From positions 32,054,001-32,118,000 of the forward strand of contig NW_027266297.1 in assembly GCF_022045235.1 (NCBI RefSeq): 64,000 nucleotides of DNA, written 5' to 3'. This DNA is from Haliotis cracherodii (Eukaryota). This document shows, piece by piece, positions 5,200 through 31,685 of this stretch (positions within the stretch are counted from its first letter, which is position 1; the number at the start of each line of letters is the position of its first letter). The notes beneath the pieces were generated by a model. That model was not told where the DNA came from. It worked only from the letters and a program-made list of their open reading frames with translations, and made no database searches. A program made the translations under genes and the position numbers.

Positions 5200-6640
5200 G
5201 TTGCATTAAATTGCTTGTACTATATAAGATTACATTATATGACATACGAACATCCATTAAATGCATGTTATTAACCTTAATGTTTTGCAGCTGATTATGG
5301 TACTTTTTATAAGGTATTAACATTTTTATGGTTCTTTTACCGCGCATCTTCTCAAGGTGGAGTAAAGTCCAATGTACTTCTGTTCGTTTACATAACTGTT
5401 TTATTCAATTCTCATCACTATAATAGTTTAGATTTATATGACCTGCGAATAATGATAAATGCACCCACCGCGCTAATAATTTTGTCATCATGATTGTTTT
5501 CGTTTTCTTGTTATATTACAACGGGTCAGCCCAATGTGGGACTTCGTGGACTCTTACCATTTGGTCGATCATGAAACACACAAGCATGGGGTCGGTACTG
5601 AGAGACCAAGGGTCATAATCGGGACGAATCTTAAATCCATATAAACGAGCAACAGATCCTGACGTACTGGTACGCGGTGTGAACATTAAACATTTGAGAA
5701 TCAAAGACTTCCTTAACATCTTGCGACCGAACATCACTGCACCTTTATTGTTGTCATTGCTTTTTGTCAACGAAATATCGTATTGATATTGTGGTTGTGT
5801 TAATATTCGTTGTGGTGTCTTTACTCAAATTGTGTATTCATGGGGAAACTGAGAGGATGTATGTCCATAGTACAACACAATTACGTGATATGTGTGTTTC
5901 TTTCAACTAGCAATGCAGAATGTATGTTCGATGCATTAATGTTATTAATGTAACATTGATTATTTGTTTGTCTATCCACATATGCTGAAAACAATCTTTA
6001 GCTAATGTCTTTACTCAGACGAGGGTGCGTATGGCTGTGATATGAATGAGTGTTGCCTCAGACCCAAGTCAGGGTGCCTTTAATGATATTGAATCGAAAA
6101 AAGATAACCAATGGTCTTAGTTGTGTGAAACGTGTCATGTCATTGGGGTACGACGACACACTCCTGTAAGAATACATTGTCAATGAAAATAAACAACACG
6201 CAAGCCTTAATAGTGTGTTTTATTCCTTTCTATTCTAATATTGCACATGTTACAAAGTGGGACAAAATCAATGAATGAGTTTCATTGACACCATAATATA
6301 AACAATTAAATATGCACGTTTCACAAACCAGACCAATAACGATAATCAGTCTCAATCATTCGGTAGAACACACTTTTCAGTCACGCACTGTAATGACACA
6401 TCATGCCCTCTCATTCGCACTGGGGATCTGGCAAGTGGCATAATATGACATTTGATCTCGATGTTTTCGATTTGATCTCTAGTCAAATACTCATGATCAC
6501 TTATATCACGGTAGTTTACAGTAAGTCCTTTGAAATATGACATCTTAAGAAAAACGTCCTTATCTCACTATATATTAGGATATGTCAGAAACATTCTATA
6601 CTTTGTCTGATGAAATTGTGCTGCCTTGTTTGAACACATA
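5200..6640 (-). pseudogene. Remnant of a sixth array copy: last ~14 codons, stop, 3' UTR and downstream flank only
   Basis: 6596-6639 encodes ..VFKQGSTISSDKV* as in the intact copies. 6140-6595 is a diverged 3' UTR with AATAAA at ~6218-6223. The sequence joins directly to upstream spacer (atgttggtatctttgaca). Confidence 0.8.
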
Positions 6641-9202: not shown

Positions 9203-11093
9203 CTATACTTTGTCTGATGAAATTGTGCTACCTTGTTTGAAAACATGTCGAGCAGTAGATCGTGATCTCCTCAGACGCCTCCAAGCGTAGTCATAGGACT
9301 TTAGCATGGAGGCTGTTTTGACGTGGTATAATGCTCTTCTGTACACCACCCTCCGCATATAGACACTGCAGTCCTGAGACACAACGTTGTTCACCTGAGC
9401 TCTGACAAGTTTGTTTCCAAGAAGCCGTGTTTCCCATTTAACATTATCGGGAATATAGTGGCAGAACTTACTGAATACCACACACCTTCGTCCGTACCGG
9501 ATGGACTGAACACCGATCTCATAGAGAGCTGGCTTATTGTTCTCAGACTTGAAGATTGTCTTCTTTCTGAAACCGGGGTTGGCACCCCGCCTTTTCTCCC
9601 ACTGCGCATCCTGTTTGAGTGGAACGTCAGGAGAGATAACTTTGACCCACGGTGACCAGTCCATGTTTCTTAAGCTGAAGTTGTTCTCAAAAACTTCCTC
9701 TCTTCTCAGAAGAGGTGTCACAAATTTTGTAGGTTTCTGAAATAATACATTATATATAGTGAGTCCATTTAGAAATGGACATATCTTTAAAGTTCCTCAA
9801 GGGTACAACTTTAATCGATAAATGCCATCGTTATCAGCAGTATAAGAAAGAAATGAACAACTGTATATGTCATTATCACTTGGGAAGAAACATGTCTGAA
9901 ATATACCTTCAGTGATTTAGTTCCTGGTCTTCTGGTGGATTTAGGTTTGGCCTTTCGAACTGCTGTGATTGATATAGTTTTCTTTAAGGTGGGGATCTTC
10001 ACATCTTTCTTACTGCAACCGGTTGTGGTCTTCTTTGGCGATGACAGAGAGGCTACTCCATCACGTAGTGAGGTAAACATTCCTTCCATGTCTTTGCTGA
10101 GGGCACCTTCACCACAACGAGTTCGAACTTCTTTCTCATACACCTGAAATGACATATACAAATGTCAAAACAGGAATACACGGAAAACATATTCGGTAAG
10201 GAAAGTAAACTAAATATATTATGACAAATATATATGTTTATGAACCAAATTATCGAAGAGCAAGCTTACATCAAACATATCTGCCCCGTGCTCCCTGTAG
10301 CAGATGGCCATGAGGAAGTCGAAGACATTGGAAAAGCTGTCGAGTTGAAGATGGCGTCCCCCTGTCTCCTGGGACATTCTCTTGTAGAATTCCATGCTGC
10401 CACATCCACGCTCTACCCCATATATCTTCACTCCCTGGAAACGAATGGGATGTTTCAATGTATTTACTGTACATTTGACTTATGTTAGCATGATGCAATT
10501 CTGAGTGAACTCGATTTGTATCATCCCCAACTGACAATCAAACTCAAAATGCAATTCGATATTGTATTGAGAATTTGAATCTCTTGAAAAATAGCATTTC
10601 TTAGTGATGTTAAGAATTTAATTTGGCTAAAGTAAAATTAGCTCACCATTTTATTGAGAGTTTGAATCTCCTCCCTCCAGTCTATCTTGAGTTTGTTGTC
10701 GGGGTAGTCTGGTTCATGGGGGTTGGCATCCCCGATCATGACGAGAGCACGATTGGATCCGGGAGTCCATGACAACTCCTCACCAACTTGTCTGAGAACA
10801 AGTTCGTAACATTCGTCCGAGTCTCCGCCTCCAGTGCTGCTGACGTTGTTTACAAAGTCACATAGTTCCTTAACGTCTGTGGAAAAGTCGATCCACTTTG
10901 TTACGTAGTTGTGTTTGTCACAATAGTCCCCGTGTGCGAAGACGGCAATTCTGATGGCGGGGATGTCAGCCTGGAGCCGCTGTATCATGTCCTGGAGTCG
11001 ACCTCTGACTTCGACGAGACAGCTGCTCATGGAGCCGGTTGTGTCAAAGGAGAAGACAATCTCCGGAAGTCCACCAGGAGGAAGCAAAGCCAT
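9203..11093 (-). CDS. VWA domain + Lys-rich linker + ET/HRT-like GIY-YIG-fold domain protein, copy 1 (subtype A), 460 aa
   Basis: Spliced CDS join(11093..10647,10434..10270,10143..9907,9736..9203), all GT-AG with phase-0 coding introns (149+55+79+177 aa). VWA motifs IVFSFDTTGSM, AHGDYCD, TGGGD, LVMIGD, ETGG. C-terminal motifs WSPW, PALYEIGV, ETRLL, YDYAW. Non-coding exon 1 at ~11653..11542. AATAAA at 8799..8794. Confidence 0.9.
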
Positions 11094-11650
11094 GTTGAAT
11101 CTGTTGAAATATTCAGAACAATTGAGTGTACATGTATACAAGAAGTTTTACTTTTGAAATTGATACAGCTTTATAACCATTAACTCTGGCAGTGTAAATA
11201 TAAAAATGTCTTGAAAATCCATCTTTTGGTTCATTTTAATTTTAATGTTTATATTCTCAAGTAAATTTAATAATTTCAATTTTTAATAAAGTCAATTCAG
11301 AAACAAGAATGTTGGTTTCTTTAAAATATTTGCAAAGGTTATTTCCGTAAGTATGCTATAATTTATTAGCATTTTATAGATATAGAAAAATGTGTTCAGG
11401 TTATAAATACATATGATTTAATAATTTACGCTTTTCTTATAAAATAGATATAGATGTGTAATTTATTTGGCGACGATTTCCTCGCTGTTATCAGACCCAG
11501 TACTATATACATCATCACTGTTAATATGTTCCTCAAATTACCTTTTTTGAAGGTGACAGTAGTAATATAGTTCTTTTGCTATATTTCCACGCCGCTGTCA
11601 GACGTAGTTTATATATATTCAAGTCTTTCAACTGTAGTGTATGTCACTGG

Positions 11651-11750
11651 ACTGATCTTACTCAGCAGCCCGCTCGCTTTTATACTGGCTGAGAGGCGAT
11701 CAATGGGAGCTCGCTGAGACTTGTCTTGGTTGGCATGTTTAGACCTGTTC
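11651..11750 (-). promoter_or_regulatory. Core promoter of copy 1: TATAAAA + Inr (TCAGT) + p53-family half-site cluster
   Basis: TATAAAA at 11684..11678, TCAGT at 11655..11651 (31 nt spacing), RRRCWWGYYY-like decamers at 11717, 11731 and 11741. Confidence 0.75.
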
Positions 11751-14700
11751 CGTGGTTGTGTTTAGACGAGCAGGCGATGTTCATGTTTATGCGTTTCAGT
11801 ACATGCTTCTGTTTTGAAAGAAACAAAATCAACTGATTAATCAGTTGAAGATAAATGTAATCGGGGAATTATTAAGTACCTTGGACTTTGTGAAACGTGC
11901 TGTCTTTGAATGTCTCATATTCTGAATCGACACGTGAAACATACGTCCAGAAACAGATGAACATACTCTCTCAAACACATTATTTATATCAATGCTCCTT
12001 ACACTGTCTGTCGGAAGATATTTTGGTCAGAGACGGTACATTACCGCAATGTACAGAGTTTGTATATTATAGATGACGTCACTGCTTCGCGGAATGCTTT
12101 ACTCACACAACAAAATATCGATAATTTCCTCAGCAATAACACATAGGAATCTTGTAGATGTTTCTGTGGAATATATTGTCGTTAATTGATAGTGTGTATG
12201 TACTGTACTGGAAAAAATCATCCCTTCCAGTTGATTATCCTTTGATTGTGTAAACCATCATGAGGTGTGAATATACATTGTTTTGTTCCATTTGGAGAAT
12301 ACTTTGTCGTGTCGAACTTTCCCTGAGAAGCGTTGCTTTGTTGTAATTTCGAGAAAATATGTCGGTCCTAAATGAAAAACACTATTTGATATGTATCACA
12401 ACAATGAGCACTTTCTCTATGATAGTTTTGTACTCTAAGGCGTGATGAATTACTTTGTGCACGAATTCGCAGGCCATTTTTAACACATATAAAAAACCCA
12501 TGATGTTTGTATCTTTGACAGTGTGTGTCAATGTATTTCAGGAATAGAAACAGTGTTTTCATAATCAATATAGGACGTGAGAGTACCTCTTTGTAAAATG
12601 AAGAGACACATTTAATTGTCTTTCTGTTTCACGAGACTGCAGCTGATAATACTTTTCAAAAAGTTCTTTTTCTTACATGTAAAAAATATTTACTTTTATT
12701 TCAACTCCCGAGAATACGTTTTAAAAATATATCAATAAATTGTTATTCAAGATAACAACATTGACCAGTTTTCATGACATATATTTATAATACTCTTGCG
12801 ACCAGATTTGATGTGAAGTATCAGCCGTACTACAGTGGCCAGTTTCCTTGATATATACAGCTGGAAAAGAATTTAAGCATTACATGTTTCATGTTTTCAT
12901 ATATCCTGAACTGCCGTTTATCGTTGGGAGATATTTACACATGACATTGATTTCATTTTGATGAAAGTTGAAGAAAACGCCGATGTCTGCTATGAAGTCA
13001 GTTCAAGAGAATGCCATATCGTAAAATGCAAAGAAGTTGATGAAGCAAATGAAAGGGTTGTCACATAAATATTTCCACAGAACAGTTACAAAACATGTTA
13101 CTAGATTATCGATTTCCGTTTCTGTATTTCAGTTTGGGCTTGTCGATTTGTAAAAAAATAAAGGGGTTTCGTAAGAACATTAATACCGGATGCGATTTTG
13201 AAACAAGCAGTGTTTTCCATGATATATGTCGGAAACAAAATAAACGTTGCTCAGTTTCATAACATTAATCTAAACATGAACACTTTCTAGTCTTTTAAAA
13301 GTTATAAAAACGTATGATTTATAACATGTTGATATACATCTTCCGACATGGAAAGGTGGTGATTGTACATTCAGGAAATGCGTTCATGACTTGAGGAACA
13401 TATCTCTCCAACACGTTGTTTACCTTCGTTTCTCCTCACACGTGAGTCTAGGACTCGGTTTCATTGAGTAGCGCAGTGTAGTGAAGCGAGTTTAGAAAGA
13501 ATGTGTGACGTATTTACTTCGCGGATTGTTATGCTCAGTCAGCAGTTCTCCTGTCCATGCAACAACATTACACACCGATGTAATTTTCAAACTCAATACA
13601 TTAGATGCAGAGAACAGGAATAGCAAATCAATGCAAATTTTGACTAAATAATGCATGCAAAATGTGCAGTAAATACATTGTACACAATTGAGATGAAACA
13701 TAAATACATTCTATATTCGTTTGACTATGTAAGTTAAAAGTATGTGAATTACGAACATACATAAGATGTATTTTGGTCCTTTTTATTATGTCATCGCGTT
13801 ATTTATTCACCTAATGCGTGTATTCATGTATTTACATTTGTAATATTATAAAACTGCGCATCATCTCAAGGTGGGAGTGAGTGAGTGAGTGAGTGAGTGA
13901 GTGAGTTGGGTTTAACGCCGTTTTTAACATTATTCCAGTCATATCACGGCGTTCACGGTGGGAGGACAGCCCAATGCATTTCAGATATGCCAGGTTACAA
14001 TATAGGAGTTTAAACTCATATGACGTGTGAATATGAATAAATGCACGTGAGTGCTCATAGCTGGATCATATTATATATATGAATTTCTGTTTGTTTCTGG
14101 TTACTTTACATTCCAGCACGTCAGCTTAATGTGGAAGTTCGTTGACGGTTAGTATTTGGTGAAACACACGGGCATGGTTATGGCACTGACAGATTCTAAT
14201 TTACGACCAGACGATCCTGACACGGACCTTAAATAAAAACGAATAAAACACAACCTCTTTCAATATTCGTAAGAAAACTGCTGAATAGTACTTGATCATT
14301 GATTTCACGGATCAATATCCTGTAGTCGAACATCACTGCACCTTTGAGCTAGAAATGCAGTAACTTATTGACAGGCGCTCAAAAGTCCCAAAAATGTTGT
14401 CAGCGAAATATCATGCTGGAAATCGTAACAACAAGAACGGCTGTTCGTTTTGTTCCTTAAAATGTCTTTACTCAAAGAGATATGGAAGTCGGTTCTGGAT
14501 ATGGGGGGTTGTGATATGACTGAATGTTGCTATATGTCCATGTCAGGGCGCATTCAATGAAACTGAATCGAGAAAAGGGAAAGTTGAGGTCTTCAGTGTG
14601 AAACATACGCCACGTTTCGGGGGTAGGAGGACGCACTCTTGTAAGTAGACATTTTCAAAGAAAATAAAGTATATGCAAGTCTTATTTGTTTGTTTTATTC

Positions 14701-15102
14701 ATTCCTATTCTGATATTGCACATGTTAAAATGAAGTATAGATTGACGGTCAATGATTGATAGGAATTTATATACATCGTAATATAAACAATCAAATATAT
14801 ACAACGTTTCACATAACAGGAAAATAACGTTCATCTGTCCATCATTCGGTAGAACACACACATTCTCAGTCACGCACTTTAATAACACATCATGCCCTCT
14901 CATTCACATAAAATATCTGGCAAGTTGTATGATATGAGATTCGTTCTCGAAGTTTTTCATAGTTATATACTTATGAATTTGGCCTCTTATGTGCCAGTGT
15001 TTTCCAGAATGACCTTTGATATATGGCATGTTAAACAAACCGTCCATATCTCCGTATCTGTTAGCATATATCACAGAATGTGCGTCAGTGTTCAGAAACA
15101 TT

Positions 15103-16993
15103 CTATACTTTGTCTGATGAAATTGTGCTACCTTGTTTGAACACATGTCGAGCAGTAGATCGTGATCTCCTCAGACGCCTCCAAGCGTAGTCATAGGACT
15201 TTAGCATGGAGGCTGTTTTGACGTGGTATAATGCTCTTCTGTACACCACCCTCCGCATATAGACACTGCAGTCCTGAGACACAACGTTGTTCACCTGAGC
15301 TCTGACAAGTTTGTTTCCAAGAAGCCGTGTTTCCCAATTAACATTATCGGGAATATAGTGGCAGAACTTGCTGAATACCACACACCTTCGTCCGTACCGG
15401 ATGGACTGAACACCGATCTCATAGAGAGCTGGCTTATTGTTCTCAGACTTGAAGATTATCTTCTTTCTGAAACCGGGGTTGGCACCCCGCCTTTTCTCCC
15501 ACTGCGCATCCTGTTTGAGTGGAACGTCAGGAGAGATAACTTTGACCCACGGTGACCAGTCCATGTTTCTTAAGCTGAAGTTGTTCTCAAAGACTTCCTC
15601 TCTTCTCAGAAGAGGTGTCACAAATTTTGTAGGTTTCTGAAATAATACATTATATATAGTGAGTCCATTTAGAAATGGACATATCTTTAAAGTTCCTCAA
15701 GGGTACAACTTTAATCGATAAATGCCATCGTTATCAGCAGTATAAGAAAGAAATGAACAACTGTATATGTCATTATCACTTGGGAAGAAACATGTCTGAA
15801 ATATACCTTCAGTGATTTAGTTCCTGGTCTTCTGGTGGATTTAGGTTTGGCCTTTCGAACTGCTGTGATTGATATAGTTTTCTTTAAGGTGGGGATCTTC
15901 ACATCTTTCTTACTGCAACCGGTTGTGGTCTTCTTTGGCGATGACAGAGAGGCTACTCCATCACGTAGTGAGGTAAACATTCCTTCCATGTCTTTGCTGA
16001 GGGCACCTTCACCACAACGAGTTCGAACTTCTTTCTCATACACCTGAAATGACATATACAAATGTCAAAACAGGAATACACGGAAAACATATTCGGTAAG
16101 GAAAGTAAACTAAATATATTATGACAAATATATATGTTTATGAACCAAATTATCGAAGAGCAAGCTTACATCAAACATATCTGCCCCGTGCTCCCTGTAG
16201 CAGATGGCCATGAGGAAGTCGAAGACATTGGAAAAGCTGTCGAGTTGAAGATGGCGTCCCCCTGTCTCCTGGGACATTCTCTTGTAGAATTCCATGCTGC
16301 CACATCCACGCTCTACCCCATATATCTTCACTCCCTGGAAACGAATGGGATGTTTCAATGTATTTACTGTACATTTGACTTATGTTAGCATGATGCAATT
16401 CTGAGTGAACTCGATTTGTATCATCCCCAACTGACAATCAAACTCAAAATGCAATTCGATATTGTATTGAGAATTTGAATCTCTTGAAAAATAGCATTTC
16501 TTAGTGATGTTAAGAATTTAATTTGGCTAAAGTAAAATTAGCTCACCATTTTATTGAGAGTTTGAATCTCCTCCCTCCAGTCTATCTTGAGTTTGTTGTC
16601 GGGGTAGTCTGGTTCATGGGGGTTGGCATCCCCGATCATGACGAGGGCACGATTGGATCCGGGAGTCCATGACAACTCCTCACCAACTTGTCTGAGCACA
16701 AGTTCGTAACATTCGTCCGAGTCTCCGCCTCCAGTGCTGCTGACGTTGTTTACAAAGTCACATAGTTCCTTAACGTCTGTGGAGAAGTCGATCCACTTTG
16801 TTACGTAGTTGTGTTTGTCACAATAGTCCCCGTGTGCGAAGACGGCAATTCTGATGGCGGGGATGTCAGCCTGGAGCCGCTGTATCATGTCCTGGAGTCG
16901 ACCTCTGACTTCGACGAGACAGCTGCTCATGGAGCCGGTTGTGTCAAAGGAGAAGACAATCTCCGGAAGTCCACCAGGAGGAAGCAAAGCCAT
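15103..16993 (-). CDS. VWA + ET-like domain protein, copy 2 (subtype A), 460 aa
   Basis: Exact +5900 offset from copy 1: join(16993..16547,16334..16170,16043..15807,15636..15103). Splice sites and frame are intact, and the protein is near-identical to copy 1. Confidence 0.9.
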
Positions 16994-17550
16994 GTTGAAT
17001 CTGTGGAAATATTCAGAACAATTGAGTGTACATGTATACAAGAAGTTTTACTTTTGAAATTGATACAGTTTTATAACCATTAACTCTGGCAGTGTAAATA
17101 TAAAAATGTCTTGAAAATCCATCTTTTGGTTCATTTTAATTTTAATGTTTATATTCTCAAGTAAATTTAATAATTTCAATTTTTAATAAAGTCAATTCAG
17201 AAACAAGGATGTTGGTTTCTTTAAAATATTTGCAAAGGTTATTTCCGTAAGTATGCTATAATTTATTAGCATTTTATAGATATAGAAAAATGTGTTCAGG
17301 TTATAAATACATATGATTTAATAATTTACGCTTTTCTTATAAAATAGATATAGATGTGTAATTTATTTGGCGACGATTTCCTCGCTGTTATCAGACCCAG
17401 TACTATATACATCATCACTGTTAATATGTTCCTCAAATTACCTTTTTTGAAGGTGACAGTAGTAATATAGTTCTTTTGCTATATTTCCACGCCGCTGTCA
17501 GACGTAGTTTATATATATTCAAGTCTTTCAACTGTAGTGTATGTCACTGG

Positions 17551-17650
17551 ACTGATCTTACTCAGCAGCCCGCTCGCTTTTATACTGGCTGAGAGGCGAT
17601 CAATGGGAGCTCGCTGAGACTTGTCTTGGTTGGCATGTTTAGACCTGTTC
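17551..17650 (-). promoter_or_regulatory. Core promoter of copy 2
   Basis: Identical to copy 1: TATA 17584..17578, Inr 17555..17551. Confidence 0.75.
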
Positions 17651-20600
17651 CGTGGTTGTGTTTAGACGAGCAGGCGATGTTCATGTCTATGCGTTTCAAT
17701 ACATGCTTCTGTTTGGAAAGAAACAAAATCAACTGATTAATCAGTTGAAGATAAATATAATCGGGGAATTATTAAGTACCTTTGACTTTGTGAAACGTGC
17801 TGTCTTTGAATGTCTCATATTCTGAATCGACACGTGAAACATACGTCCAGAAACAGATGAACATACTCTCTCAAACACATTATTTATATCAATGCTCCTT
17901 ACACTGTCTGTCGGAAGATATTTTGGTCGGAGACGGTACATTGCCGCAATGTACAGAGTTTGTATATTATAGATGACGTCACTGCTTCGCGGAATGCTTT
18001 ACTCACACAACAAAATATCGATAATTTCCTCAGCAATAACACATAGGAATCTTGTAGATGTTTCTGTGGAATATATTGTCGTTAATTGATAGTGTGTATG
18101 TACTGTACTGGAAAAAATCATCCCTTCCAGTTGATTATCCTTTGATTGTGTAAACCATCATGAGGTGTGAATATACATTGTTTTGTTCCATTTGGAGAAT
18201 ACTTTGTCGTGTCGAACTTTCCCTGAGAAGCGTTGCTTTGTTGTAATTTCGAGAAAATATGTCGGTCCTAAATGAAAAACACTATTTGATATGTATCACA
18301 ACAATGAGCACTTTCTCTATGATAGTTTTGTACTCTAAGGCGTGATGAATTACTTTGTGCACGAATTCGCAGGCCATTTTTAACACATATAAAAAACCCA
18401 TGATGTTTGTATCTTTGACAGTGTGTGTCAATGTATTTCAGGAATAGAAACAGTTGTTTTCATAATCAATATAGGACGTGAGAGTACCTCTTTGTAAAAT
18501 GAAGAGACACATTTAATTGTCTTTCTATTTCACGAGACTGCAGCTGATAATACTTTTCAAAAAGCTCTTTTTCCTTACATGTAAAATATATTTACTTTTA
18601 TTTCAACTCCCGAGAATACGTTTTAAAAATATATCAATAAATTGTTATTCAAGATAACAACATTGACCAGTTTTCATGACACATATTTATAATACTCTTG
18701 CGACCAGATTTGATGTGAAGTATCTGCCGTACTACCGTGGCCAGTTTCCTTGATATATACAGCTGGAAAAGAATTTAAGCATTACATGTTTCATGTTTTC
18801 ATATATCCTGAACTACCGTTTATCGTTGGGAGATATTTACACATGACATTGATTTCATTTTGATGAAAGTTGAAGAAAACGCCGATGTCTGCTATGAAGT
18901 CAGTTCAAGAGAATGCCATATCGTAAAATGCAAAGAAGTTGATGAAGCAAATGAAAGGGTTGTCACATAAATATTTCCACAGAACAGTTACAAAACATGT
19001 TACTAGATTATCGATTTCCGTTTCTGTATTTCAGTTTGGGCTTGTCGATTTGTAAAAAAATAAAGGGGTTTCGTAAGAACATTAATACCGGATGCGATTT
19101 TGAAACAAGCAGTGTTTTCCATGATATATGTCGGAAACAAAATAAACGTTGCTCAGTTTCATAACATTAATCTAAACATGAACACTTTCTAGTCTTTTAA
19201 AAGTTATAAAAACGTATGATTTATAACATGTTGATATACATCTTCCGACATGGAAAGGTGGTGATTGTACATTCAGGAAATGCGTTCATGACTTGAGGAA
19301 CATATCTCTCCAACACGTTGTTTACCTTCGTTTCTCCTCACACGTGAGTCTAGGACTCGGTTTCATTGAGTAGCGCAGTGTAGTGAAGCGAGTTTAGAAA
19401 GAATGTGTGACGTATTTACTTCGCGGATTGTTATGCCCAGTCAGCAGTTCTCCTGTCCATGCAACAACATTACACACCGATGTAATTTTCAAACTCAATA
19501 CATTAGATGCAGAGAACAGGAACAGCAAATCACTGCAAATTTTGACTAAATAATGCATGCAAAATGTGCAGTAAATACATTGTACACAATTGAGATGAAA
19601 CATAAATACATTCTATATTCGTTTGACTATGTAAGTTAAAAGTATGTGTATTACGAACATACATAAGATGTATTTTGATCCTATTCATTATGTCATCGCG
19701 TTATTTTTTCACCTAATGCGTGTATTCATGTATTTACATATGTAAGATTATAAAACTGCGCATCATCTCAAGGTGGGAGTGAGTGAAAGAGTTGGGTTTA
19801 ACGCCGCTTCAAACATTATTCCAGTCATATCATGGCGTTCAAGGTGGGAGGACAGCCCAATGCATTTCAGATATGCCAGGTTACAATATAGGAGTTTAAA
19901 CTCATATGACGTGTGAATATGAATAAATTCACGTGAGTGCTCATAGCTGGATCATATTATATATATGAATTTCTGTTTGTTTCTGGTTACTTTACATTCC
20001 AGCACGTCAGCTTAATGTGGAAGTTCGTTGACGGTTAGTATTTGGTGAAACACACGAGCATGGTTACGGCACTGACAGATTCTAATTTACGACCAGACGA
20101 TCCTGACACGGACCTTAAATAAAAACGAAAAAACACAACCTCTTTCAATATTCGTAAGAAAACTGCTGAATAGTTCTTGATCATTGATTTCACGGATTAA
20201 TATCCTGTAGTCGAACATCACTGCACCTTTGAGCTAGAAATGCAGTAACTTATTGACAGAGGCTCCCAAGTCCCAAAAATGTTGTCAGCGAAATATCATG
20301 CTGGAAATCGTAACAACAAGAACGGCTGTTCGTTTTGTTCCTTAAAATGTCTTTACTCAAAGAGATATGGAAGTCGGTTCTGGATATGGGGGGTTGTGCT
20401 ATGACTGAATGTTGCTGTATGTCTATGTCAGGGCGCATGAAATGTAACTGAATCGAGACAAGGGAAAGTTGAGGTCTTCAGTGTGAAACAAACGCCACGT
20501 TTCGGGGGCAGGAGGACGCACTCTTGTAAGTAGACATTTTCAAAGAAAATAAAGTATATGCAAGTCTTATTTGTTTGTTTTATTCATTCCTATTCTGATA

Positions 20601-20987
20601 TTGCACATGTTAAAATGAAGTATATATTGTAGGTCAATGAATGATAGGAATTTATATACATCGTAATATGAACAATCAAATATATACAACGTTTCACATA
20701 ACAGGAAAATAACGTTCATCTGTCCATCGTTCGGTAGAACACACACATTCTCAGTCACGCACTTTAATGACACATCATGCCGTCTCATTCACATAAAATA
20801 TCTGGCAAGATGTATGATATGAGATTCGATCTCGATGTTTTCCAAAGTTATATACTTATGAATTTGGCCTCTTATGTGCCAGTGTTTTCCAGAATGTCCT
20901 TTGATATATGGCATGTTAAGAAAACCGTCCATATCTCCGTATCTGTTAGCATATATAACAGAATGTGCGTCAATGTTCAGAAACATT

Positions 20988-22883
20988 CTATACTTTGTCT
21001 GATGAAATTGTGCTACCTTGTTTGAACACATGTCGAGCAGTAGATCGTGATCTCCTCAGGCGCCCCCATGCGTAGTCATAGGACTTTATCATGGAGGCTG
21101 TTTTGGCATGGTATGATGCTCTTCTGTACACCACCCTCCGCATATAGACACTGCAGTCCTGAGACACAACGTTGTTCACCTGAGCTCTGACAAGTTTGTT
21201 TCCAAGAAGCCGTGTTTCCCAATTAACATTATCGGGAATATGGTGGCAGAACTTGCTGAATACCACACACCTTCGTCCGTACCGGATGGACTGAACACCA
21301 GTCTCATAGAGAGCTGGCTTATTGTTCTCAGACTTGAAGATTGTCTTCTTTCTGAATCCGGGGTTGGCACCCCGTCTTTTCTCCCATTGTGCATCCTGTT
21401 TGAGAGGAACGTCAGGAGAGATAACTTTGACCCACGGTGACCAGTCCATGTTTTTCAAGCTGAAGTTGTTCTCAAAGACTTCCTCTCTTCTCAGGAGTGG
21501 TGTCACAAACTTTGTTGATTTCTGGAATAATATAGTGTATTGTGAGACTCCTTGACATGGTCATAGCCTAACACAATGAAAACAAGAATTAAACACTCGC
21601 ATTATGATCGCGCATTATAAAAAAAATGAGAGAATATTTTACCTTGAACGATTTCTTTCTTGGCTTTCTGATGGATTTAGGTTTTGGCTTTCGGACTCTT
21701 TGGATGGATGTTATTTTCTTTAAGGTGGGAACCTTCACATCTTTCTTAGCGGCACTGATCGTAATCGCTGTCTTTGGTTGAGGAGGGGAGACAATTCCAT
21801 CACGTAGGGATGTAAACATTCCTTCCATGTCTTTGCTGAGGGCACCATCAGCGCAACGGGCTCGAACCTCTTTCTCGTACACCTGATGAGGGCAAATGAT
21901 CATTGATGAAAGGAATTTTATAACAACGAATATCACACAATTCAAATGACAGCCGCACTACGGATTTTAAAGTGATGCAGTTATTTCAACTTACATGAAG
22001 AATCTCTGCCCCCTGTTCCCTGTAGCAGATGGCCATAAGGAAGTCAAAGATGTTTGTAAAGTTTTCCAATTTAAGATGCCGACCTCCTGTCTTGTTGGAA
22101 ATGGTTTCGTAGAACGTCGTATTGTCCGTGTCGCACTGAACTCCATAGATTTTTACTCCCTGAAATTAAAATTAATTAATAGAAAAAGTGAATGAACATC
22201 CTTGTGTCGAAGTTACGGTTGTTGTGGCGAAGCAAAAGCAAGGTCCCTGCGCATTCCTTCTTTATTCATCATTTTCGGTTGTGTCGAACCTCGGATAACT
22301 TTACTCGGATACATTTACGTGAGTCTCTTCAACGTCGACTTAAAGGTGGTTGACTGGTGACTGTCGTGTTTTTATTATTTGATTTATGTCTGAAAATGAC
22401 CACAACTTGGAAATTAATAGAAATCCAACATACCATTTCATTCAGAGTTTGTGTCTCCTTTCTCCAGTCTATTTTTAGTTTATTGGCTTTGAAGTTTGGT
22501 TCGTGGGGCTTGTCGTCCCCGACGACGACGAGAACACGGTTAGATCCTGGTGTCCATGACAACTCCTCCCTAACTTGTCGGAGAACAAGTTCGTAACACT
22601 CGCCGTGGTCGTAATCGCCTCCTGTATCTTTAACGTTCATGACGAAGTCGCAGAGCCCTTTCACGTCAGTGGAGAAGTCGATCCACTTTGTGATATATGT
22701 GGATTTGGTACAGTAGTCACCGTGTGCGAAGACGGCGATTCTGACGGCGGGGATGTCAGCCTGGAGCCGCTGTATCATGTCCTGGAGTCGTCCTCTGACT
22801 TCGGCCAGACACTTGCTCATGGAGCCGGTTGTGTCAAAGGAGAAGACAATCTCCGGAAGTCCACCAGGAGGAAGCAAAGCCAT
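20988..22883 (-). CDS. VWA + ET-like domain protein, copy 3 (A/B mosaic), 462 aa
   Basis: join(22883..22434,22159..21995,21882..21643,21521..20988), GT-AG, 150+55+80+177 aa. Exon 3 (GVKIYGVQCDTDNTTFYETISNKTGGRHL...) was translated by hand because it is missing from the ORF track. Confidence 0.9.
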
Positions 22884-23434
22884 GTTGAATCTGTTGAAAT
22901 ATTCAAAACAACTGAAGTACATGTATACAAGAAGTTTCACTCTAAAAATTGATAGAAATTTAGAACCATTATCTCTAGCAGTGTAAATAATTATAAAAAT
23001 GTTTTGAAAATCCGATTTTTTTTCCAATTTAATCTTAATTTTTATATTCTCAAATAAAAGAATAGATTAAATTTTTAACAAAGTCCATTCAGAAACAAGA
23101 ATGTTGGTTTCTTAAAAATATTTGTACAGGTAATTTCCGTTAGTATGCTATGATCATTTTTTATAGAAATAGAAGAATGGGTTTCCATTATTAGAAAATA
23201 TTTGTTCTCATCAAATAGATATAAATCGGTAAGTTATTTGGCGACGATTTCCTCGCTGTTATCAGAGGCAGTACTATATGTATATATACACCATCACCGT
23301 TATACTACATGTTCCTCTAGTTACCTGTTTTGAATGGTGAGATTAGTTATATAGTTCTTGAGCTATATTTCCACGCTGCTGTCAGACGTAGTTTATATAT
23401 ATTCAAGTCTTTCAACTGTAGTGTATGTCACTGG

Positions 23435-23534
23435 ACTGATCTTACTCAGCAGCCCGCCAGCTTTTATACTGGCTGAGAGGCGACCAATTGGAGCTCGCTG
23501 AGACTTGTCTTGGTTGTCATGTTTTGACCTGTTC
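23435..23534 (-). promoter_or_regulatory. Core promoter of copy 3
   Basis: TATA 23468..23462, Inr 23439..23435, exon-1 donor CAG|GTAACT at 23325. Confidence 0.7.
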
Positions 23535-26500
23535 CGTGGTTGAGTTTTGAAGAGCAGGCGATGTTCATGTCTATGCGTTTCAGTAGATGCTTCTGTTTGG
23601 AAAGAAACAAAATCAACTGCTTAATCAGTTGAAGATAAATGTAATCGGGGAAATATTAAACATTTTAGACTTAGGGAAACGTGTTGTCATCGAATGTCTC
23701 ATGATGTTCTGAATCGACGCGTGAAACATACATCCAGAAACGGATGAACATACTCTCACAAATACATTGTTTATATCTATGCTCATTACACTGTCTGTCG
23801 GAAGATATTTTGGTCGGAAACGGTATATACCCGCAATGTACAGAGTTGGTATATTGTAGATGACGTCATTGCTTCCTGGAATGCTTTACTCGCACAACAA
23901 ACAATGGATAATATTCTCAGTAACTACACATAGGAATCTTGATTGTGTAAACCATTATGATCAAAGAAAAGGTGTGAATATACATTGTTGTGTTCCATTT
24001 GGAGCATACTTTGTCGTATCAAACTTTCCCTAAGAAGCGTTCTTGTGTTGTATTTTCGAGAATATATGGTGGCCCTAAACGAATTCGCTATTTTGCAAAA
24101 AAACATATATTGGTATCATAACAATGAACACTTTCTCTGAGATATAATTCGATAAGAAGGCGTTTTTAATTACTTTGTTCACGGATTCGCAGACCATTTT
24201 TTAATACCCGTTAAACAACATGATGTTGGTGTCTTTGGCAGTTTATTTCAGGAATAGAAAAAGTTGTTTTAAAAATCAATATAGGAAGCGATGTAAATTT
24301 TTGTAAAATCAAGAGCTACTTTGCGTATTTTTTCTATTTCACGAGACTGAAAATACTTTTCAGAAAGCTCTTATATACACCAATTTTTCCTTACATCTAA
24401 TATATATTTACGTTTATTTTCAGCAACGAGAATACGTTTTAAAAAAATATATCAATAAACCAAGTTATTTAAAATAACAACATCGATCAGTTTTCATGAC
24501 ATACATAAATGATACTCTTGTGACCGGATTTGATATGAAGTATCAGCTGTACTACCGTGGCCAGTTTCCTTGATATATACATCTGGAAAATAATTTAAGC
24601 ATTACCTGTTTTATATTTTCATATATCCTTAACTTCCATTTATCTTTTGGAAATATCTACACATGACATTGATCTTTTTTTTTTTGAATGTTTAAGAAAA
24701 CACCGATGCCTGCTATGCAGTGAGTTCACGAAAACGCCATATCGTAATATGCAAAGAAGCTGGTGCAGCTATTGAATGGGAAGTCAAATAGTTATTTCCA
24801 CACAACCGTTACAAAACATGCAATTAGATTATCGATTTCAGTTTCTGTATTTCAGTATGGGTCTGTCGCTTTGTAGAAAATAAAGGGGTTGCGTACGAAC
24901 ATTAATACCGGATGCGATTTTGAAACAAGGCTCTTCTCTATGGAAATATAGTAAGCAGTGTTTTCCATGATATATGTCAGAAACAAAATATTGCCCCGTT
25001 TCATAACATTAATCTAAGCATGAACATTTTCTGGTCTTTTACAAGTTATAAAACGTATGATTAATAATAACTATGTTGATTATACATCTTCCGACAAGAA
25101 AAGGTGATTGTTAATTCAGGAAAAGCGTTCAGGAGTTGAGGAACATATTTCTCAAACACGTTGTTTACCTTCGTTTCTCCTCACACGCGAGTCTAGGACT
25201 CGGTTCATTGAGTAGCGCAGTGTAGTGAAGCGAGTTTGGAAAGAATGTGTGACGTATTTACTTCGCGGATTGTTATGCTCAGTCAGCGGTTCTACTGTCA
25301 ATGCAACAACATTACACGCCGATTTAATTTTCAAACTCAATATATAATTTGCGTAAAACAGGAACAGTTAATCACAGCAAATTTTGACTGAATTATGCTT
25401 GCAAAATGAGCGATAAATACACTGTACAAATTGAGATGAATCATGAATATATTTTTAAGAATGTGAATTACGAACATACATAAGATGCAGTTTGGTCCTT
25501 TTATTTATGTCAAAACGTTATTTTTTCAACTAATGCCTGTATTCGGGTATTTACATTTGTAAGGTTATATAACTGCGCATAATCTCAAGGTGGGAGGACA
25601 GCCCAGTGCATTTCAGTTCGTGGATGTTAACATGAGTGTTTCATTATATGCGAGTTTCAATACAGGAGTGTAAACTCATATGACGTGTGAATATGAATAA
25701 ATTCACGTGAGTGCTCATTACTAGATCATATTATATATATGACTTTCTGTTTGTTTCTGGTTACTTTACATTCCAGCACGTCAGTTTAATGTGGAAGATC
25801 GTTGACGTTTAGTATTTGTCGAAACACACGAGCATGGTTACGGCACTGACAGATTCTAATTCACGACCAGACAATCCTGACACGGACTTTAAATAAAAGC
25901 GAAAGAGAAATCCATTTCAATATTCATAAGAAAACTGCTGAATAGTACTTGATCAATAATTTCATGGATCTATATCCTGTAGCCGAACATCACTGCACCT
26001 TTGAGCTAGAAATGGAGTAACTTATTGACAGGCGCTCCCAAGTCCCAATAATGTTGTCAGTGAAATATCATGCTGGAAATCGTAACAAGAATGGCTGTTC
26101 GTTTTGTTCCTTACGATGTCTTTACTCAAAGAGATATGGAAGTCGGGGCTGGATATGGGGGGTTGTGATATGCGTGAATGTTGCTGTATGTCCATGTCAG
26201 GGCGCATGAAATGTAACTGAATCGAGACAAGGGAACGTTGAAGTCTTCAGCGTGAAACAAACGCCACGTTTAGGGGGTAGGAGGACGCAGTCTTGTAAGT
26301 ACACATTATCAAAGAAAATAGGATATATGTAAGTCTTATTAGTTTGTTTTATTCATTCTTATTCAGTTTGATTTTGCACATGTTAAAATGAGGTATGATC
26401 TGAAGGCCAATGAATTAGTTTTATATACATTTTAATATAAACAATATATACAGCGTTTCACATAACAGAAAAATAACGTTCATCAGTCTCTGTCATTCGG

Positions 26501-26752
26501 TAGAAAACACACATTCTCAGTCACGCACTTTAATGACACATCATGCCGTCTCATTCACATAACTATCTGGCAAGTTGTATAATATGAGATTCGATCTCGA
26601 TCTTTTCCAAAGTTATAAACTGATTAATTTGGCCTCTTATGTGCCAGTGTTTTCCAGAATGTCCTTTGATATATGGCATGTTAAGAAAACCGTCCATATC
26701 TCCGTATCTGTTAGCATATATTACAGAATGTGTGTCAATGTTCAGAAACATT

Positions 26753-28642
26753 CTATACTTTGTCTGATGAAATTGTGCTACCTTGTTTGAACACATGTCG
26801 AGCAGTAGATCGTGATCTCCTCAAACGCCTCCAAGCGTAGTCATACGACTTTATCATGGAAGCTGTTTTGACGTGGTTTGATGCTCTTCTATACACCACC
26901 CTCCGCACATAGACACTGCAGTCCTGAGACACAACGTTGTTTACCTGAGCTCTGACAATTTTGTTTCCAAGAAGCCGCGTTTCCCAATTAACATTATCGG
27001 GAATATGGTGGCAGAACTTGCTGAATACCACACACCTTCGTCCGTACCGGATGGACTGAACACCAGTCTCATAGAGAGCTGGCTTATTGTTCTCAGACTT
27101 GAAGATTGTCTTCTTTCTGAATCCAGGGTTGGCACCCCGTCTTTTCTCCCATTGTGCATCCTGTTTGAGTGGAACGTCAGGGGAGATAACTTTGACCCAC
27201 GGTGACCAGTCCATGTTTCTCAAGCTGAAGTTGTTCTCAAAGACTTCCTCTCTTCTCAGGAGTGGTGTCACAAACTTTGTTGATTTCTGGAATAATATAG
27301 TGTATTGTGAGACTCCTTGACATGGTCATAGCCTAACACAATGAAAACAAGAATTAAACACTGTGATCGCGCATTTAAAAAAAATTGAGAGAATATTTTA
27401 CCTTGAACGATTTCTTTCTTGGCTTTCTGATGGATTTAGGTTTTGGCTTTCTGACTCTTTGAATGGATGTTATTTTCTTTAAGGTGGGAACCTTCACATC
27501 TTTCTTAGCGGCACTGATCGTAATCGCTGTCTTTGGTTGAGGAGGGGAGACAATTCCATCACGTAGGGATGTAAACATTCCTTCCATGTCTTTGCTGAGG
27601 GCACCATCAGCGCAACGGGCTCGAACCTCTTTCTCGTACACCTGATGAGGGCAAATGATCATTGATGAAAGGAATTTTATAACAACGAATATCACACAAT
27701 TCAAATGACAGCCGCTCTACGGATTTTAAAGTGGTGCAGTTATTTCAACTTACATGAAGAATCTCTGCCCCCTGTTCCCTGTAGCAGATGGCCATAAGGA
27801 AGTCAAAGATGTTTGTAAAGTTTTCCAATTTAAGATGCCGACCTCCTGTCTTGTTGGAAATGGTTTCGTAGAACGTCGTATTGTCCGTGTCGCACTGAAC
27901 TCCATAGATTTTTACTCCCTGAAATTAAAATTAATTAATAGAATAAGTGAATGAACATCCTTGTGTCGAAGTTACGGTTATTGTGGCGAAGTAAAAGCAA
28001 GGTCCTTGCGCATTCCTTCTTCATTCATCATTTTCGGTTGTGTCGAACCTCGGATAACTTTACTCGGATACATTTAAGTGAGTCCCTTCAACGTCGATTC
28101 AAAGGTGTTTGACTGGTGACTGTCGTGTTCTTATTATTTGATTTATGTCTGAAAATGACCACAACCTGGAAATTAATAGAAATTCAACATACCATTTCAT
28201 TCAGAGTTTGTGTCTCCTTTCTCCAGTCTATTTTTAGTTTATTGGCTTTGAAGTTTGGTTCGTGGGGCTTGTCGTCCCCGACGACGACGAGAACACGGTT
28301 AGATCCTGGTGTCCATGACAACTCCTCCCTAACTTGTCGGAGAACAAGTTCGTAACACTCGCCGTGGTCGTAATCGCCTCCTGTATCTTCAACGTTCATG
28401 ACGAAGTCGCAGAGCCCTTTGACGTCAGTGGAGAAGTCGATCCATTTTGTGACGTATGTGGATTTGGTACAGTAGTCACCGTGTGCGAAGACGGCGATTC
28501 TGACGGCGGGGATGTCAGCCTGGAGCCGCTGTATCATGTCCTGGAGTCGACCCCTGACTTCGGCGAGACAGTCGCACATGGAGCCAGTAGTGTCAAAGGA
28601 GAAAACAATCTCCGGAAGTCCACCAGGAGGAAGCAAAGCCAT
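26753..28642 (-). CDS. VWA + ET-like domain protein, copy 4 (subtype B), 462 aa
   Basis: join(28642..28193,27918..27754,27641..27402,27286..26753), GT-AG, open frame. Confidence 0.9.
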
Positions 28643-29117
28643 GTTGAATCTGTGGAAAATGAAAACACAACTACATGAATACATACATACATGAAAGTAT
28701 ATTTGTAATATCGATTCAGTTTCATTACTAACCCTTGCAGCGGAAATGCTGAAGTAATTTAATTAATTGTCTTGTTCATTTTAATGTTATTTTAATGTTA
28801 CATTGAAAGTTTTCCTGTCAAGGTTTATTGAGAAATCACAATCTTGTTGTCTTTTCTAATTCAAGGTAATTTGCATTAGCATACTATAACTATTTGTATT
28901 ATATGCAGAAAACATGTGTTTACGTTACGTTACGTAAATTTATCAAATAATTGATCTTTTTCTTTAAAAATAGTTATTGTGGAATGTGTTCCACAAGTTA
29001 CCTTTTTTGAATGATGACAGTAGATATTTAGTTGTTGTTTTTTATTCTCCGGTGCTATTAAATGCCGTTTCAGATATACCAACGCCTTCCAACTGCTAGC
29101 GAGTGACTTGTGTGTAG

Positions 29118-29218: not shown

Positions 29219-31211
29219 CGTGGTTGTGTTTTGGACATCAGACGATGTTCATGCCTCTGTGTTTCTTGTTCGTATTTCAAGCTAAACTGTTGTTTGAAAA
29301 CGCGAACTAACTCAAATTATTAATGAGTTAAAGATAAAAGTGTTATCGGAGTTATTGACCATCTTTGATTGATGGCAAATTGGTCTAATTGATTAGGCGA
29401 TATTCCGAACTAATACATGACACATGCGTTCAGAAACAGTTGAACTGTCTCGCTCAAATACAGTGTTTATGCCAAGCTCCCTACAGTGACTGCAGTTGCT
29501 ATTTCGCCGTGCACAATGCGTGGAGTTTGTAAAATGAGTGGATGACGTCAATGCTTCGCGGAATAAACATTTTATGCTCAGTGATAACGGATAGGAATAT
29601 TTTTTTCTGTGAGATATATATTGTTGTTGATTAATGTTTAGTATGCACGGAAAGGAATACATAATGCCTTCCTATTTGGTCATCTTTAGACGGTATAAAG
29701 CATTAACTTGCTAATTGGAAGGAATGCATGTTTGATCCAACAAACTATGTATGTTTACAAGCGTTGCTGTGTATACACATGCGATGCGTTGAAAAGTTCG
29801 TGTGTTACATTTTCGATAATATATGGCGGCTCATCAAAAATATATCCTGTTTTGACGACTTTCTTCCACATAAATTAGCAATACCACAAAAGAGATATAG
29901 TAATGCTGTAAGGCTTTTATTATTACTTTGTGTACTTATTCCACGACCAAACATTTTTCTTCTGCGTAACTTATTTTAGCAATAAATAAACCTTAAAGAC
30001 GGTGACTATAGGAAGAACTAACAATCACCTTTTGTTTGCTTTTTTTCATTATTTCATCATGGGGACAATATCTTCCTGAAAACACTTAAAGTATGATTTA
30101 ATATTTTAATATTATTTCAACCACTGACCCTACGTTTTCAAAAACAATCCCTACACCTAGTGACTCAAAATAAGGGCGAAACGTGGTCTAGTTTTCATGA
30201 AATAAATGTTATTAGCAGTACTATAGCTACATGCTTCCATGTGAAATATCAGTTATTATTATTAAGTAAGTGTTGAAAAACTGTTTATTCCCATATACAA
30301 ATTGATATATCAGTCGAGTGACATATAACGCTTTATTCTGGAAGTACTTCCTCAAAGACAATCATTACAGATTAAAATCATGAAATAAAATACATGACAA
30401 TTAAAACAGTTTTTTTCGTGTTAAATAAACGTGTTTATCTCATCTGATGACTTGGGAAAATCACCAAGGTGAGATAAGCATGTTATTTGACCCAAACAGA
30501 CAAATATCTTCTATTAATACATTGGTCAGTTTCCATGATAAACTTCAGAAAAAAATACATTGTCCATCTTCAGTGAGATATTTGTGTAAAATAACGTTGA
30601 TCGGCTTCTCGCTGATACATTATTAATACAACTTGTACTTTATCCAGCGATTAAATACCCTTTTTGAGTTAGGTCATACTAGTCTCACCTTATGACGCTG
30701 TTCAAATTACCTTCCCGTATCTAACATATTCATGGCAACATCGTTCTGTCATAACTGTCAATCAAGATGGCGCATACACATTAATAATAGATCGGAGAAT
30801 TTTATTAACATTGTCGAATAACCAAATATTATTCCCTGGGAAGAAATATGGCAAGATGATGGTTAACCATGGTTAATCTGACATGGTGCCGGCTTTCCCT
30901 AAAAATATTCAAACCACTGTGTCCGTGCCACAGCAAATACGAAGTTGTGTCCTTGGAATTATGGCTGTTTCTGGACACAGAAATGAAAACTTCTTGAAGA
31001 GTTTCAAAAACATATGAATACCTGTTGTTCAGTGTAGGGCGTTTTGCAACATACAGCATTCACACAAAACGGACACTGTTGCTCTTCCTCCGCAATATCG
31101 TCCCATTCACGCCCAATGCCGTGGATTCACGTCGGTTACGGTATCATATAGTGCAACCAACTCAGTAAGGAATGTATTTCGTGGCTTGCAGTTTCCTCTG
31201 TACACTGACAT

Positions 31212-31685
31212 CAATCTCATTAAAATCAGATCTTAGTTCTCGCTACCGCTAAACAAAGATCTGAGGACATCCCATTACGGGTCACGTCAGACCGACCTTG
31301 CACGAACTTTGAGCGACCAATGGAATGACCAACCAGAAGGCAGCTTTCTCCAGCTTTACGGCACTAATTTCAAATTGGCGACTATGCTTCGAAACATATT
31401 TTGACAAATTCTCCATCACAAATTCGAAACCTGAACAAAAGAATATTCTGGAATGGGTAATAGATGGTGTAGATTGTATGGATTCGGTCGTTAAACCCGT
31501 AACTATCGTTCGGAATACCCCGTGTTAAAATTTTCGAGGTTGCATGATTCCGACGGTCACTTTCATGATCTGGTAAGTGACGCTCTGATTGGTCGGATGA
31601 AAGGTCGTTCTGACTTGACCCTAATGGGATATCTTCAGATCTTTGTTTAGCGGTAGTGAACTAAGGTCTGATTTTAATGAGATTG
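31212..31685. mobile_element. MITE with ~90-bp imperfect TIRs and 9-bp TSD (Mutator-like)
   Basis: CAATCTCATTAAAATCAGA... and ...TCTGATTTTAATGAGATTG, with TSD CACTGACAT. Confidence 0.85.

Follow-up and report, generated by a model that had tools for sequence, protein, structure and literature searches.

Apparent concerted evolution around a divergent VWA region in a tandem gene array of the abalone Haliotis cracherodii

In the abalone Haliotis cracherodii, a 64-kb stretch of contig NW_027266297.1 (64,000 nucleotides, positions 32,054,001 to 32,118,000; hereafter the window) contains five head-to-tail units of ~5.9-6.3 kb, each with one minus-strand gene encoding a VWA domain, a basic linker and a C-terminal domain with a predicted GIY-YIG fold. 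The copies belong to two subtypes, A (A1 and A2) and B (B1, B2 and B3), with divergent VWA domains on nearly identical tails, which raises the question of what keeps one end of these proteins alike while the other changes. The first-pass annotation of this DNA had set diversified recognition specificity against gene conversion as alternatives. Our analysis points to both at once: conversion is supported, and diversified recognition appears to be the likeliest reading of the VWA sequences. On balance we favour, with some confidence, an explanation in which conversion keeps exon 5 alike and the old subtypes A and B, which differ on the face of the MIDAS (metal ion-dependent adhesion site), likely bind different partners through a mechanism that we infer.

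Exon-by-exon divergence and gene conversion

Each array gene has four coding exons (exons 2 to 5; Table 1), and all 15 introns between coding exons are bounded by GT and AG and lie in phase 0. The five proteins are identical, letter for letter, to named H. cracherodii records (for B1, to the end part of its record). A search of the window found no copies beyond these five; the span of the first-pass annotation, 10270..28642, leaves B3 outside, and three further copies of this species (P0002, P0014 and P0017) are not in the window. A1 and A2 (99.0% identity) and B2 and B3 (98.6%) differ about as much as expected from the nucleotide diversity of the species, 0.0103 in the accessible text of a preprint (bioRxiv 10.1101/2024.09.16.613283). 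Being as close as alleles, either pair could be a haplotype duplicate, and the copy number is not secure. It is nevertheless extremely improbable that the set of copies is an assembly artefact made of uncollapsed haplotypes, which would leave the A-B divergence (77% identity in the core) unexplained; moreover, the other three species studied also have several A and B genes.

Amino acid differences between A and B are distributed very unevenly: 27/149 in exon 2 and 23/55 in exon 3, which encode the VWA domain, 25/79 in the linker exon 4 against B1 and B2 (23/76 against B3), and 9/177 in exon 5, the counts for exons 3 and 5 being exactly those of the first-pass annotation. Synonymous divergence (dS) is 0.49-0.55 in exon 2, ~1.0 in exon 3, 0.47-0.62 in exon 4 and 0.12-0.20 in exon 5, where it is lower than in the other exons in all six contrasts (p<1e-3). 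Nonsynonymous divergence (dN) is 0.12 and 0.26 in the two VWA exons, with dN/dS ratios (omega) of 0.22-0.27, compared with 0.31-0.40 in the linker exon and 0.11-0.18 in exon 5 (<0.41 everywhere). Introns 2-4 are unalignable between A and B, whereas 1 kb of 3' flank and codons 1-46 are 91-97% and 94-96% identical, respectively.

We compared 34 Haliotis proteins from four species (39 fetched, five isoforms dropped; 4 of 14 clusters not expanded). In the VWA tree they form three subtypes, A (12 proteins), B (18) and C (4), each with support of at least 100/98 and each present in all four species. Since the two geographic clades of Haliotis split ~36.4 million years (Ma) ago according to the accessible text of the same preprint (bioRxiv 10.1101/2024.09.16.613283), the subtypes common to both must be older. 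The exon-5 tree instead mixes A and B within an eastern group (support 91) and a western group (92). Approximately unbiased (AU) tests rejected a single A clade for exon 5 (p=0.0004) and an eastern-Pacific A+B group in VWA (p=0.0008). It counts against this result that the exon-5 tree is a quick one with unstarred support values and that the groups entered in the AU tests were named after the trees had been seen.

Protein distances show the same discordance. For exon 5, the A-B distance within a geographic clade is 0.068 (four divergent B proteins excluded; 0.098 including them) and the A-A distance between clades is 0.137; for VWA, the A-B distance is 0.244 within and 0.250 between clades, and the A-A distance between clades 0.044. 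Subtype C, which differs from A by 0.39 in exon 5 and by 0.245 in VWA, escapes conversion to judge from these distances. In both the A-A and the A-C comparisons exon 5 is more distant than VWA, so an unconverted tail evolves faster than VWA, and the C-terminal domain is not intrinsically constant as the first-pass annotation had it. It is very doubtful, then, that the tail is held constant by strong purifying selection while VWA races under positive selection, the literal version of the earlier claim: exon 5 does have the lowest omega of all exons, but its dS and the divergence of the 3' flank are low as well, it is three times more divergent than VWA between A orthologues, and the two trees conflict. 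The low dS and the discordant trees indicate that exon 5 is alike in A and B through gene conversion. Where a divergence peak persists under conversion, trees join orthologues in the diverged part but paralogues in the converted one (PMC3924837, in the text accessible to us), and the sequences indicate that this family is under concerted evolution with a protected region.

Copy B1 is a clean a-b-a mosaic: over codons 47-149 it has 98.4% identity to B2 and 77.3% to A2, and its 5' intron 1 is 87.8% identical to A2 and 67.1% to B2, which indicates that the VWA cassette moved as a unit. Conversion and unequal crossing-over would keep exon 5, the 3' flank and codons 1-46 uniform between copies, and the central block would be spared partly by selection holding two faces apart and partly by introns that no longer pair. 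Red/green opsin and protocadherin clusters, like the abalone array, have a divergence peak under conversion, as described in the accessible part of PMC3924837. Unlike in the opsins, the abalone peak is broad (~1.3 kb, three exons, unalignable introns) and one subtype is multi-copy and still variable; its breadth and its unalignable introns make it weaker evidence of selection than the opsin case. A divergence peak under conversion is a known pattern, and its VWA-GIY-YIG substrate is one that we did not find described: a literature search covering few subscription journals and no supplements gave no account of this architecture or of its expansion in abalone.

Clustering of changes around the metal site

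According to Pfam and a structural model, residues 10-198 form the VWA domain, followed by two helices and the basic linker. The Pfam families VWA and VWA_4 are above cut-off in the array proteins, the model has the topology of a Rossmann-type VWA fold, and a fold search of the PDB with the VWA model gave 483 matches at E<=0.001, those listed being VWA domains. Searching the PDB by sequence produced no significant match for the VWA or the C-terminal domain; rows for tail-sheath, caspase and peregrin proteins in the PDB searches were rejected as chance. The DxSxS-type MIDAS of this family reads D17-x-T19-x-S21, with T replacing the first S, and the whole metal site (D17, T19, S21, D56, D91, E94, D122 and H126) is invariant in 34/34 Haliotis proteins; E94 is a presumed metal ligand, from a weak alignment with integrin beta. 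All motifs quoted in the first-pass annotation are present at the expected positions of the spliced proteins, EDTGGDYDHGE being the form of B2 and B3, since B1 reads KDTGGDYDHGE. The geometry of VWA domains is established and served to place the MIDAS-side loops, which were defined from the strand topology of the model, without coordinates, after the alignment had been seen.

Over the whole VWA domain, A and B differ at 25/57 MIDAS-side sites against 21/141 others (Fisher p=2.5e-5), and at 1/29 sites of the opposite-face loops. In the unconverted core, amino acid changes affect 23/50 sites on the MIDAS side and 20/102 elsewhere (p=8e-4, or 0.0008-0.008 when the boundaries are moved), with none at the 16 sites in the opposite-face loops; a face count as high as that observed arises in 5 of 152 circular shifts, counting the unshifted arrangement. 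Synonymous changes in the core are even (11/27 on the face, 30/82 elsewhere; p=0.82). The first-pass annotation was right that changes cluster next to the MIDAS beyond chance but not that A and B differ mainly there, about half of the VWA differences and those of the linker lying elsewhere. It had also proposed that elevated dS in the VWA exons, with changes away from the MIDAS face, would indicate age plus conversion only; dS is in fact raised more than dN in these exons, but the changes do favour the face.

The variability on the face belongs largely to B. By parsimony, face sites of the 18 B proteins changed 1.72 times on average, compared with 0.85 for helix sites and 0.45 for those of the opposite face; within A the values are 0.14 for the face and 0.12 for helices. 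All four VWA differences between B1 and B2 are on the face (4/58 versus 0/141), and among the ten B copies labelled cra and ruf, 14/58 face sites vary versus 12/141 others (p=0.004). Variation in B is greatest at sites 23-24, at the inserted residue and at 90, 92, 129 and 159-164. B has replaced D59, which 28/32 eukaryotic relatives (one distant Haliotis paralogue included) and 71/72 viral relatives keep, and G90, kept by 91% and 93% of them, respectively. No excess variability of the face was seen among these 32 eukaryotic and 72 viral relatives (p=0.27 and 0.36). With the nearest outgroup, P0040, face changes fall 12:0 on B versus A and those at other sites 7:6, and face changes fall more on B than on A in 15/15 outgroup pairs. 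Rather than two equally diversified subtypes, the alignments indicate a frozen, ancestral-like A and a derived, still varying B.

The most serious competitor, which we consider rather unlikely although clearly in play, is that age, conversion and relaxed constraint suffice: diverged introns would shield the central block, and a redundant B would drift in exposed loops and gain no new ligand. Several observations weigh for it, or at least against diversified recognition. The VWA omega values are low, pooled face pN/pS is ~0.5 (dN 0.34, dS ~1.0; five DNA copies of two types), and omega >1 was found nowhere in pairwise estimates for the window copies, and these estimates do not establish positive selection. 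The linker exon has diverged as far as VWA, and the unalignable introns 2-4 alone could block A-B conversion; in the accessible text of PMC3924837, arrest of conversion by diverged introns alone is named beside the selective 'peak of divergence' model. Most of the variable face sites are labile in distant relatives too, the face excess being significant only at such sites (p=0.002-0.003) and not in two more conserved site classes (p=0.14-0.68), and two B copies carry DTTAS in place of DTTGS. Furthermore, the relative-rate excess reaches p<0.05 in only 5/15 outgroup pairs, which are non-independent; conversion among B copies can inflate parsimony counts; and the model that defines the face has a predicted local distance difference test score (pLDDT) of 51-61 in two loops. 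Relaxation alone, however, fits poorly with the retention of all eight metal-site residues in 18/18 B proteins, with the lack of a clear B acceleration off the face and the unchanged opposite-face loops of the core, with the fixation of D59T in all 18 B proteins over ~36 Ma, and with residues 23, 24 and 27, which differ even inside the converted first 46 codons.

A putative intracellular adaptor and its relatives

The architecture of these proteins provides clues to what the two ends may do. Each of the five copies has an in-frame stop 11-21 codons ahead of the ATG and lacks a Met in the interval, which indicates that the protein begins at the VWA domain without a signal peptide; as judged from sequence, neither a signal peptide nor a membrane anchor was seen in the array proteins, in which VWA begins at residue 10. 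The VWA by itself is a mobile module, fused in other matches to ubiquitin, Ras, RING, E2, SAM or TerD domains; these partner domains suggest an intracellular role. The VWA part is acidic (isoelectric point, pI, 4.7-4.9) and the linker very basic (pI 11.5-11.9 across copies).

The C-terminal half was unfolded in the full-length model (pLDDT <50), but exon 5 folded alone with 44 sequences reached a pLDDT of 94. Compared with 48,161 chains, this model had GIY-YIG proteins as its six best matches, led by T4 endonuclease II (EndoII; Z 7.1, root-mean-square deviation 3.5, 113 residues) and followed by PD-T4-3, Hpy188I, I-TevI, UvrC and a plant glutaredoxin N-domain (Z 3.5-4.4). It weighs against the assignment that Z 7.1 is in the middling range for the tool; the five best Foldseek rows, all GIY-YIG enzymes, agree with it, though at E values of 0.16-0.30. 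EndoII, Hpy188I, I-TevI, PD-T4-3 and the plant glutaredoxin domain were assigned to the family partly from the accessible text of PMC1564403 and PMC6585611. The Pfam family PF19239 matches the window copies weakly (E 0.012-0.023) and is above cut-off in the paralogue P0014 and in P0089; atlas matches for the tail were all <0.9 and are leads only. A search for an active-type PF19239 comparator matched 0/4 viral records and 0/14 controls, and gave otherwise four close relatives.

GIY-YIG nucleases are defined by GIY and YIG motifs, a central Arg and a C-terminal Glu (PMC1564403, accessible text). In the abalone domain, with presumed motif positions taken from model strands, the first strand reads ALY in place of GIY (Tyr kept in 33/44 sequences); the second is F/Y-x-K/R, Gly not being among the six commonest residues at the YIG column (44 sequences); the central Arg (Arg104) occurs in 15/44 and the terminal Asn in 6/44. 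No Glu was found in exon-5 residues 133-147 of the window copies, nor any conserved acidic column at 140-147. E73 and R128, by contrast with these positions, are invariant (44/44) and might mark a remodelled site. The C-terminal domain is therefore likely nuclease-dead within a predicted GIY-YIG fold, a status that we only infer because of how the motifs were mapped.

From these elements, we propose an intracellular, likely nuclear protein that would serve as an adaptor with two ends. Nucleic acid would be held, without being cut, by the basic linker together with the dead GIY-YIG domain, and a protein partner chosen by the rim loops would have an acidic residue clamped by the MIDAS metal; A would keep the ancestral partner and B copies would sample others. 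Ligand binding by the VWA of the array proteins would be metal-dependent. In Rea1, an intracellular MIDAS has its metal shell completed by an acidic residue (Glu) of the partner, and ubiquitin-like domains are bound (PMC6624252, accessible text). The integrin beta I domain has a similar metal-site layout (DxSxS, D-x-x-E loop, D-x-x-x-H), integrin beta-6 gives a weak sequence match to the abalone VWA (E 0.15), and integrin beta chains are among the fold matches. In integrins the beta2-beta3 loop sets specificity. Unlike integrin beta and Rea1, the abalone protein has no signal peptide, no membrane anchor and no AAA ATPase.

The opposite charges of the two ends (pI 4.7-4.9 for VWA, 10.3-11.9 for linker and tail) and the linker moving together with VWA in the swapped block of B1 might alternatively mean that the altered face adjusts how the protein contacts itself rather than an external ligand, either by setting which paralogues join in oligomers or by letting the acidic VWA dock onto the basic linker or the GIY-YIG domain. 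We find this improbable: a MIDAS takes an acidic ligand residue (PMC6624252, accessible text), yet the linker has only two D/E; the tails of A and B hardly differ; and in viruses the same VWA is joined to unrelated C-terminal domains.

Our preferred reading, two faces with different partners, has to be placed among the known relatives of each half. The VWA resembles Mimivirus R811-like and phage VWA proteins (PF00092/PF25106), with which it has in common the motifs DTTGSM, HGDYCD, GGD-x-x-E-C-YE and GD-x-x-PH and an identity of 32-49%; a Mya relative is named 'YR811-like'. No established function for the R811-like VWA family was found in the literature searched. The tail has a predicted fold in common with the GIY-YIG domain of the plant EFFECTOR OF TRANSCRIPTION (ET) factors (PF19239) and T4 endonuclease II, but it has apparently lost the YIG Gly, catalytic Glu and terminal Asn and does not conserve the Arg. 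The accessible text of PMC6585611 reports DNA nicking by ET2. Unlike the plant factors, the abalone protein lacks ET repeats and is fused to VWA; no Cys-rich ET repeats were found in the 458-462 aa proteins, whose plausible Pfam matches are VWA and GIY-YIG families only.

A VWA-family search of 1.84 billion representatives gave 4563 matches, and 37 of the 149 non-query matches listed also hold the tail (its profile being built partly from them). Twenty of these 37 were looked up and 13 have an organism, always a spiralian: Lottia, Lymnaea, Aplysia, Batillaria, Littorina, Haliotis (two other loci), Magallana, Mya, Pecten, Owenia, Tubulanus and Macrostomum, that is, molluscs, one annelid, one nemertean and one flatworm. 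The architecture is expanded to 7-11 copies in each of the four abalone species. At least two further distant VWA-GIY-YIG loci lie outside the cluster in Haliotis (P0046, P0048/P0197). Two mussel entries, a 'GIY-YIG domain containing' transcript (PMC6215123) and an 'R811' table row (PMC6401078), were left unused, their link to the abalone family not being established by the accessible text of these sources.

In viruses, VWA was found in 164/207 candidate stretches of large viral contigs (IMG/VR), of which 80 were kept, and in 39 phage records. The viral members combine VWA with a RING finger or with an unrelated domain at the C terminus, and none of the 80 loci has the abalone GIY-YIG-like tail. 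In 48 distinct viral cases, VWA is followed by a C-terminal tail of at least 110 aa; the viral tails that were aligned have a conserved domain in common, held by 39/149 representatives, whose only match is phrog_26613, of unknown function. This domain was rejected as a relative of the abalone tail (hhalign probability 0.6%). A PHROGs search with the abalone protein gave no family, and a viral fold search gave one unnamed match at E<=0.001. Two viral loci (L028 and L037) are RING-VWA fusions.

More speculatively, and with long odds, spiralian intracellular sensors that combined a VWA clamp, which large phages and giant viruses also possess, with a dead GIY-YIG nucleic-acid binder may have become a variable receptor array in abalone, in which recombination would exchange complete VWA cassettes over one shared tail and promoter, as B1 illustrates, and the B face would be running an arms race against intracellular pathogens or mobile elements. 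If the B face does track pathogens, endangered and farmed abalone would have here a new candidate immune locus; if B is only relaxed, the array would be an ordinary example of concerted evolution. A frozen ancestral and a variable derived subtype on a near-identical tail form a natural matched pair, which could help to find the ligand of an uncharacterised VWA family also present in phages and giant viruses.

Gene models, feature coordinates and other elements

Contigs from three of four public runs (X1, X5 and X9) skip introns 2 and 3 of B2 (274 and 112 nt), and a contig of one run joins B2 to an upstream exon (exon 1). That these runs are RNA is a guess, none being recorded as such, and the B2 intron-4 joint is absent among the rows listed. 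One X1 contig (at 26055-27259) runs from a long 3' untranslated region into sequence like 30395-30184, which suggests another unit arrangement in that organism. The database model of B1 (P0028) carries 13 extra N-terminal residues read from intron 1 (22883-22922), probably an annotation artefact.

Table 1 Features of the array, in window positions.
Feature	Positions	Strand	Remarks
Copy A1 (P0001, XP_071118668.1), 460 aa	9203..11093	-	Coding exons 11093-10647, 10434-10270, 10143-9907, 9736-9203
Copy A2 (P0021), 460 aa	15103..16993	-	5.9-kb unit 99.0% identical to A1
Copy B1 (C-terminal part of P0028), 462 aa	20988..22883	-	Chimera: A-like 5' flank and 3' end, B-type core
B-type block in B1 (VWA core, introns 2-4, linker)	21280..22780 (approximate)	-	Informative-site scan; ~codon 33 to ~240 nt into exon 5
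Copy B2 (P0031), 462 aa	26753..28642	-	Coding exons 28642-28193, 27918-27754, 27641-27402, 27286-26753
Non-coding exon 1 of B2, 3' end	29002..29050	-	Joint in run X1; donor after 29002; left boundary exact, right edge approximate
Copy B3 (P0030), 458 aa	33094..34977	-	6.3-kb unit 98.6% identical to B2
MIDAS motif D17-T-T19-G-S21 of A1	11031..11045	-	D17, T19 and S21 invariant in 34/34 Haliotis proteins; variable residues 23-24 come next
Beta2-beta3 loop, residues 55-65 of A1	10899..10931	-	D56 invariant; residue 59 is D in A, C and relatives, T in 18/18 B
Loop 84-95 of A1	10809..10844	-	Invariant D91 and E94; one-residue insertion site; most variable B positions
Loop after beta4, residues 122-138 of A1	10680..10730	-	Invariant D122 and H126
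Loop after beta5, residues 159-164 of A1 (exon 3)	10390..10407	-	Placed by model topology
Exon 4 of A1: end of helical extension, start of basic linker	9907..10143	-	Linker residues 231-295: pI 11.8, 20 K/R, 2 D/E
Exon 5 of A1: predicted GIY-YIG-fold domain	9203..9736	-	Basic (pI ~10.3); no Glu in the helix that normally bears it; homogenised A-B

Upstream of B2, a very high-copy repeat (contig depth thousands-fold higher) occupies 31200-31700, with a matching part in the B3 unit. It is absent from the A1, A2 and B1 units, so the 5' region of B2 and B3 differs from that of the other three copies. Just beyond A1, 5313-6639 is a degenerate relic of the units' 3' flank (71-72% identity), in which tblastn found no coding remnant. 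Elsewhere in the window, 59450-63200 is a decayed Pao/BEL long terminal repeat retrotransposon with a Peptidase_A17 domain at 61414-61968 (E 1.4e-31); the adjoining frames, with no Pfam match, are presumably pol- and integrase-like. We take a fragment at 4200-4750, also with no Pfam match, to be part of a retroelement reverse transcriptase from its motif GIPMG. Minisatellite arrays with periods of 17, 47, 39 and 16/32 nt lie at 3117-3815, 43953-45223, 50982-51895 and 56480-57117, respectively.

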